Under the pieces are notes generated by a model. That model searched no databases and was not told where the DNA came from. It saw nothing but the letters and a program-made list of their open reading frames with translations. 233 nucleotides of DNA from Escherichia coli (GTDB taxonomy: Bacteria > Pseudomonadota > Gammaproteobacteria > Enterobacterales > Enterobacteriaceae). A program made the translations under genes and the position numbers. This document shows positions 1 to 233 of the stretch, piece by piece. The stretch lies in NCBI RefSeq assembly GCF_003334305.1, contig NZ_QOWS01000088.1; one strand, 5' to 3'. Position 1 is the first letter of the stretch. The number at the start of each line of letters is the position of its first letter.

Positions 1-12
1 CCGGATATCCGG
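1..12. repeat. Perfect 12-bp palindrome CCGGATATCCGG (central GATATC flanked by CCGG on each side)
   Basis: Read directly: positions 1-12 are identical to their own reverse complement. It abuts the window edge, so any extension of the symmetry upstream cannot be assessed. Within frame +1 it encodes P-D-I-R. Confidence 0.9.
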
Positions 13-233
13 TTAAGCCCGCATCTTTACCTGGCGACCAACAGCGCACAGGGGCCGTGGTGGATACTGGGGTGGTCAGAGCGGGTGCCGGGTGCTGAGG
101 ACGTACTGCCAGCGCCGCTGCCGCCGTACCGGGTGCTTACCGGGCTGGCAGACCGTTTCGGGCGGACGCTGACTTTCCACCGGGCAGCTAAGGGTGACGT
201 GGCGGGCGCGGTGACGGGGGTGACGGACGGCGC
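1..233 (+). CDS. Internal fragment of a protein-coding gene (frame +1, partial at both ends); hypothetical protein of unknown function
   Basis: Frame +1 (codons at 1-3, 4-6, ...) has no stop codon across all 77 complete codons, whereas frames +2 (TAA 14-16, TGA 170-172), +3 (TGA 96-98, TAA 189-191) and all three reverse frames contain stops. Hand-counted positional GC is about 73% (pos 1), 57% (pos 2), 77% (pos 3), the GC3>GC1>GC2 pattern expected of a real gene, with G enriched at codon position 1 (31 of 77). Amino-acid composition is varied (W, Y, F, H, K, D, E present), unlike the Ser/Pro/Thr/Ala-rich antisense translation. No ATG occurs anywhere on the + strand and no terminal stop is present, so both gene ends lie outside the window. 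At this GC content an open 77-codon frame arises by chance about one time in five, so confidence is moderate. Confidence 0.55.
82..95 (+). repeat. Perfect tandem direct repeat of the heptamer CGGGTGC (2 copies)
   Basis: Read directly: 82-88 CGGGTGC and 89-95 CGGGTGC. The overlapping 9-mer CCGGGTGCT (88-96) recurs at 129-137 in a different reading-frame phase, so the repetition is at DNA level rather than protein level. Confidence 0.85.
193..231 (+). repeat. Short-period coding repeat: GGTGACG motif three times (193-199, 210-216, 219-225) encoding G-x-x-x-G-x-x-x-G-x-x-x-G
   Basis: Read directly: GGTGACG occurs at 193-199, 210-216 and 219-225; 211-219 (GTGACGGGG) and 220-228 (GTGACGGAC) form an imperfect in-frame 9-bp tandem (7 of 9 identical). 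In frame +1, glycine falls at codons 65, 69, 73 and 77 (193-195, 205-207, 217-219, 229-231), giving GDVAGAVTGVTDG with Gly every fourth residue. The pattern runs to the end of the window. Confidence 0.5.

Follow-up and report, generated by a model that had tools for sequence, protein, structure and literature searches.

The clade I Rhs core genes of Escherichia coli with an N-terminal block of the RhsD/RhsE type, such as rhsD of K-12 (b0497), are the closest described relatives of the gene considered here (Jackson et al., 2009; PMC2935791). In that work, which emphasized displacement at the C-terminal end, clade I cores at different loci were concluded to recombine infrequently (Jackson et al., 2009). 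The DNA analyzed here, a stretch of 233 nt (hereafter the window), is a 100% match to positions 2341256-2341488 of E. coli strain A7 (NZ_CP028767.1). The A7 gene to which it belongs resembles the clade I genes in its RHS_core match, its YD repeats, its Rhs-associated core domain, the vgrG gene upstream, the small ORF downstream, and the combination of a GC-rich core with an AT-rich tip. It differs from the K-12 rhsD type in that it switches core lineage from about window position 155, and in that its core ends in PVRFIDSLGL and not in PxxxxDPxGL. Over about the first 145 nt of the window there is one mismatch to K-12 rhsD, and the palindrome with which the window opens is found at the same nucleotide, 490, of that gene. 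The features discussed are as follows, L001 being the A7 locus.

Window 1-233, plus strand: fragment of the gene for an RHS element core protein, frame +1, residues 164-241.
Window 1-12, no strand assigned: perfect 12-bp palindrome CCGGATATCCGG, self-complementary, encoding Pro164-Asp-Ile-Arg167 of the Rhs core protein.
Window 155-173 (L001 8155-8173; gene nt 644-662; NZ_CP028767.1 ~2341410-2341428), plus strand: interval to which the crossover in a chimeric rhs core is inferred to map, from the mismatch profile.

The window occupies L001 8001-8233 within a CDS (L001 7512-11765; NZ_CP028767.1 2340767-2345020) annotated as "RHS element core protein," with nt 8001 the first base of codon 164. 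Gene order at this Rhs toxin locus of type VI secretion is yncH, vgrG, rhs core, dsORF-h1, an ISAs1 remnant and pptA. The VgrG gene (TIGR03361, 627 bits) is directly upstream of the rhs core, and dsORF-h1, a small putative immunity ORF, lies downstream. The encoded protein is a canonical Rhs. It has a full-length match to the RHS_core equivalog (NCBIfam NF041261; 2675.8 bits against a cutoff of 2000, residues 1-1257), YD repeats in six stretches (TIGR01643), nine matches to PF05593 with E <=0.001 (residues 325-763), and the Rhs-associated core domain TIGR03696 in full at residues 1180-1257. By Pfam, the residues encoded by the window (164-241) fall between DUF6531 (46-123) and the first detectable RHS/YD repeat at 325, and over ~41-169 the N-terminal 400 residues show a match to two solved Rhs proteins, Tse5 (8cp6) and 7q97. 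The GC content of the core is 63.6%, against 36% in the C-terminal tip. At the core end (residues 1246-1257, L001 ~11247-11282) a Ser replaces the second Pro of the usual motif; the same position in K-12 RhsA-D reads DPLGL or DPMGL. A phage origin for the window was considered and rejected, the only phage-collection matches being two short unannotated records with a partial match at 82-83%.

CCGGATATCCGG equals its own reverse complement, as the initial annotation had stated, and contains the one EcoRV-type site (GATATC) and the two CCGG sites attributed to it. No second perfect palindrome of at least 8 bp is present in the 233-nt window. Read in context, the sequence runs GGGGCGCTGCCG, then CCGGATATCCGG, then TTAAGCCCGCAT. 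The sole frame open over all 233 nt is +1, which begins P-D-I-R-L-S-P-H, and window positions 1-12 are the codons CCG GAT ATC CGG in the annotated frame of the RHS core CDS; the earlier placement of the palindrome over P-D-I-R residues of a predicted coding frame is thereby borne out.

How unusual is a perfect 12-bp palindrome in a coding sequence of this composition? From the composition of the window, the expected number of perfect palindromes of 12 bp or longer is 0.106 per 233 nt, or about one per 2.2 kb, in agreement with the original estimate of one per few kb. The accompanying figure of a few percent for a stretch of this length overstated the rarity. Such a palindrome is present in 9.3% of 20,000 dinucleotide-preserving shuffles of the window and in 9.1% of synonymous recodings, for which its 78 codons were resampled from the codon usage of this gene, and 8.2% of recodings have one at the P-D-I-R site itself. 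Given P-D-I-R, core codon usage yields CCG GAT ATC CGG with a probability of 0.079 (in this gene CCG accounts for 80% of Pro codons, ATC for 66% of Ile, CGG for 42% of Arg, and GAT for 36% of Asp). The choice of Asp codon depends strongly on the next base, GAT being used in 11 of 19 cases before A-initial codons vs. 1 of 20 before C, and with this dependence included the probability of a palindromic spelling given P-D-I-R rises to ~0.13. The whole 4.25-kb gene contains three palindromes of at least 12 bp where 1.2-1.3 are expected, and the probability of three or more is 0.15. The palindrome is no more than chance gives.

We read the palindrome as a coincidental by-product of protein coding and not as a DNA-level element, with a probability of about 0.9. 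It resembles the chance palindromes that codon usage produces in coding sequence, in that its frequency fits both composition-based and codon-based nulls, and no difference from them was found. The proposed origin is as follows. The rhsD-type N-terminal block spells Pro-Asp-Ile-Arg as CCG GAT ATC CGG, drawing on the commonest Pro, Ile and Arg codons of the gene (CCG, ATC, and CGG) and on the Asp codon that is commoner before A. GAT-ATC, for Asp-Ile, is self-complementary, and a following Arg codon CGN pairs with a preceding NCG codon. Both NCG and CGG are favored in the GC-rich core, and any x-Asp-Ile-Arg written NCG GAT ATC CGN automatically forms a palindrome of at least 10 bp. On this reading the palindrome persists as part of an rhsD-type 5' block that is young as a whole and nearly identical among strains.

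A parallel case is provided by the same genes. The x-D-I-R-L peptide occurs twice in the N-terminal region, the other site (gene nt 298) being ~64 codons upstream of the window site. There, at the second x-D-I-R peptide of RhsA/B/C, the K-12 genes rhsA/B/C (L002-L004) have another 12-bp palindrome with the same centre, GCGGATATCCGC, at gene nt 298-309, where A-D-I-R-L is encoded. The rhsD type, by contrast, reads TCT GAT ATC CGC (S-D-I-R-L) at nt 298 and forms no 12-bp palindrome, which shows the same coding mechanism both making and losing such palindromes.

Comparison between strains and species points the same way, provided that the comparison is made at a suitable distance. In 3,517 E. coli records the 241 nt centred on CCGGATATCCGG show 96-100% identity, at a median of two places per genome, which is too close to be informative about conservation. 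Eight rhsD-type E. coli alleles differ at 23 variable sites, none of which falls between window -7 and +52; CCGGATATCCGG is invariant among them, but it sits inside a 60-nt invariant stretch and is therefore no better conserved than the neighboring bases. Identity across thousands of E. coli genomes reflects recent common ancestry of the surrounding block and not selection on the dyad.

It is the more distant homologs that are decisive. To find them, one genome per species was scanned with a degenerate pattern whose sole anchor was the downstream peptide R-L-S-P-H-x-Y-L-A-T-N. The 11 loci obtained in this way are a small species sample and a lower bound, as no E. coli record was among them though K-12 has four matching sites. 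In K-12 RhsA/B/C the homologous 12 nt are GAAGAACTCCGC, in a region that reads CCG GAA GAA CTC CGC (P-E-E-L-R), and in the core type of strains Z0117EC0148 and 13KWH46 they are GAAGATGTTCGC, in a region that reads CCG GAA GAT GTT CGC and lacks the palindrome. The E. albertii copies have GAAGATGTTCGC and GAAGAACTTCGC, and those of Citrobacter GAGGCGGTGCGG and GAAAACATTCGC. In Atlantibacter (GAGGACATCCGG) D-I-R is kept, but Asp is encoded by GAC, so that no palindrome is formed. An Enterobacter metagenome-assembled genome (MAG; L011, L012) carries GAGGACGTCCGC and another non-palindromic sequence, which encodes E-A-V-R, and two further MAG copies, GAAGATGTTCGC (L013) and GAAGAGCTTCGC (L015), are likewise non-palindromic. 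Conservation of the dyad beyond coding constraint is thus absent in these comparisons, the site being non-palindromic in RhsA/B/C, the Z0117-type core, E. albertii, Citrobacter, Atlantibacter and Enterobacter. Nor is there the conservation beyond the requirement for P-D-I-R that the initial annotation had raised, since P-D-I itself is replaced by E-[DEAN]-[VIL] in most lineages. The consensus peptide at the homologous site is L-P-E-[D/E/A/N]-[V/I/L]-R, which marks P-P-D-I-R as derived in a single lineage.

Within the E. coli rhs cores compared, the palindrome is restricted to the rhsD-type 5' block. Outside E. coli it was found only in Pseudocitrobacter faecalis (89% identity over 241 nt) and on a contig from a "Lentisphaerae" MAG (L016), probably a contaminant, with 99.6% identity to E. 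coli over 241 nt. Enterobacterial-type rhs core sequence is seen on short contigs assigned to Akkermansia muciniphila, Oscillospiraceae and Lentisphaerae MAGs (L013, L015, and L016), most likely as a result of binning contamination.

Whether the palindrome is unique in its genome had been raised earlier, and here the answer is divided. It is not unique, as the 86 kb of A7 DNA that were read include a second copy of the 12-mer. That copy is at nt 490 of the gene at the rhsD locus (L026 10010), the homologous position of a paralog, which indicates paralogy and not a dispersed motif; CCGGATATCCGG is absent from 50 kb of unrelated A7 DNA. The rhsD-locus gene of A7 (L026 9521-13304) is annotated as frameshifted and incomplete.

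The initial annotation had itself allowed that the palindrome could be a coincidence inside a coding frame, and a chance level of ~9%, the failure of the dyad to extend and its restriction to one lineage all support this. The observation is real but ordinary; the coincidental reading is supported and the functional ones are not. Codon choice for Pro-Asp-Ile-Arg in a single rhs lineage fully accounts for the palindrome. The result matters little in itself. It does remove a candidate DNA signal, and it illustrates that in GC-rich coding sequence a perfect 12-bp palindrome is a roughly 1-in-10 occurrence per 233-nt window. Among the literature matches listed, none was relevant by title or abstract to a link between rhs cores and a palindrome.

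Could the palindrome nevertheless be an operator-like site within the gene, through which a dimeric DNA-binding protein controls the rhs locus? Operators of dimeric transcription factors (~12-20 bp) are of comparable length and share its perfect dyad, CCGGATATCCGG is invariant in all rhsD-type alleles examined, and binding of a dimeric regulator was among the functions first suggested for it. We regard this as very unlikely. The palindrome occurs at chance frequency, and its invariance does not exceed that of the surrounding 60 nt. In contrast to transcription factor operators it is intragenic, lying 490 nt inside a 4.25-kb ORF, and it is far from promoter-like sites: no sigma-70-like promoters or intrinsic terminators were found in L001 7700-8400, which covers ~300-390 nt either side of CCGGATATCCGG. 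It is also unconserved at homologous loci, as it is missing from other rhs lineages with the same gene architecture. We know of no regulator associated with CCGGATATCCGG, and we infer that no protein makes use of it.

Much the same holds for restriction-modification, which the initial annotation had also put forward. Here the site would be a target for cleavage or methylation by way of EcoRV-type GATATC, of HpaII/MspI-type CCGG, or of an enzyme that recognizes the longer palindrome. The likeness to Type II sites (EcoRV GATATC; HpaII/MspI CCGG) lies in the presence of GATATC and two CCGG within the 12-mer, and GATATC is nominally over-represented in the A7 rhs gene (L001 7512-11765), with five sites vs. 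1.2 expected under synonymous resampling (P ~0.003 uncorrected). However, GATATC was the top of 64 palindromic hexamers tested, and after correction P is ~0.2. Asp-Ile dipeptides account for four of the five sites, and all four Asp-Ile dipeptides in the A7 core are spelled GAT-ATC; the enrichment, which is explained by these dipeptides, was consequently discarded as a signal. Common 4- and 6-bp sites are trivial in GC-rich genes (CCGG occurs 63 times in this one), and selection for or against Type II sites is not seen in the A7 rhs gene after correction. The 12-mer is free of overlap with Dam, Dcm or EcoKI motifs, other lineages do not conserve the site, and to our knowledge there is no 12-bp restriction recognition sequence of this kind. 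A role as a restriction or methylation target is accordingly highly improbable.

Two longer palindromes, each in the same rhs gene, have a bearing on whether such sequences are enriched.

L001 9708-9723: 16-bp perfect palindrome GGGTGGTTAACCACCC.
L001 10241-10254: 14-bp perfect palindrome GGATATCGATATCC, encoding D-I-D-I, with two EcoRV-type sites.

Both are absent from K-12 rhsA-D. Under a codon-aware null neither is significant, the probability of two or more palindromes of at least 14 bp being 0.07 and that of one or more of at least 16 bp being 0.10. Enrichment of palindromes across the gene as a whole was also considered and rejected, given P = 0.15 and a 14-mer and 16-mer that are not common to K-12 rhsA-D.

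The five GATATC sites where 1.2 are expected, the four GAT-ATC spellings of Asp-Ile, and the 14-mer and 16-mer are what can be counted against coincidence, although each is non-significant singly. The 12-mer is fixed in the rhsD-type 5' block and occurs at two rhs loci per genome. Were it a lineage-specific recognition site within rhs genes, bound for example by a dimeric regulator or by a modification enzyme specific to the strain, the nominal excess of GATATC and of long palindromes would reflect selection at the level of the DNA. We consider this extremely unlikely.

The most distinctive thing in the window is a crossover between Rhs core lineages, which lies outside the palindrome. Of 5,426 complete E. 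coli genomes only A7 contains the full window at 100%, and among 3,690 matching records the second-best match is at 90.1%. Both halves of the window are common on their own: the 5' part is widespread, and 237 records match L001 8150-9350 at 99% identity or better. The A7 gene was aligned over its first 1,200 nt to K-12 rhsD and to the Z0117EC0148 and 13KWH46 genes. Counted per 50 nt up to about nt 643, mismatches of the A7 gene number 0-7 against rhsD and 4-24 against the Z0117EC0148/13KWH46 type. Over nt 651-1150 the relationship is reversed, with no mismatches to the Z0117EC0148/13KWH46 type and 9-19 per 50 nt to rhsD. On this alignment the A7 rhs core appears to join an rhsD-type 5' end to a core of the Z0117EC0148/13KWH46 type.

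The junction could be a real N-terminal reassortment or it could be an assembly chimera, e.g., one formed with reads from other repeats. Collapse of the two rhs loci of A7 during assembly was considered separately and is unlikely, as 25 differences separate A7 rhsD from the 5' block of the chimera over the first 633 nt. Should the assembly be correct, the gene would be an example of N-terminal rather than C-terminal rhs reassortment, with the junction ~650 nt into the gene.

Since palindrome and crossover fall within the same window, the former might be thought to promote or mark recombination. Long palindromes can be recombinogenic, and the lineage junction at window 155-173 is unique to A7. 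The palindrome, however, is only 12 bp, the crossover is ~143 nt downstream of it in a short stretch identical between the parents, as would be expected of plain homologous recombination, and the palindrome is present without the junction in thousands of genomes. A recombinogenic role is thus exceedingly doubtful. The suggestion that the 12-mer is the tip of a longer inverted repeat or hairpin (a cruciform, a REP-like element or an RNA structure) cut by the window edge, which its boundary position had left open, is refuted by the flanks: the dyad ends at 12 bp, with G/T as the first flank pair and 2 of 12 flank positions complementary when the upstream and downstream sequence is read, no inverted repeat in the surrounding 300 nt takes in CCGGATATCCGG, the RNA fold of the 72 nt around it is no better than that of shuffles (-27.1 kcal/mol vs. 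a mean of -28.5, z = +0.48), and, having no spacer, the 12-mer could fold into a stem of no more than 4 bp with a loop of 4 nt.

With the palindrome read as a coincidence of coding, a few minor observations remain on the 3' side of the crossover. The rhs genes of the 3'-parent type in Z0117EC0148 and 13KWH46 (L023 854-4200 and L024 848-4194, respectively) are annotated as frameshifted pseudogenes. Directly upstream they have a DUF3969-family gene and a hypothetical gene as neighbors; the ~850 nt read on that side contain no annotated vgrG, with the upstream hypothetical CDS partial at the locus edge. The segment of the window just past the crossover contains two direct repeats, GGGTGACG (window 192-199 and 218-225) and GGTGACGG (210-217 and 219-226), which derive from the repeated peptide V-T-G-V-T-D-G.
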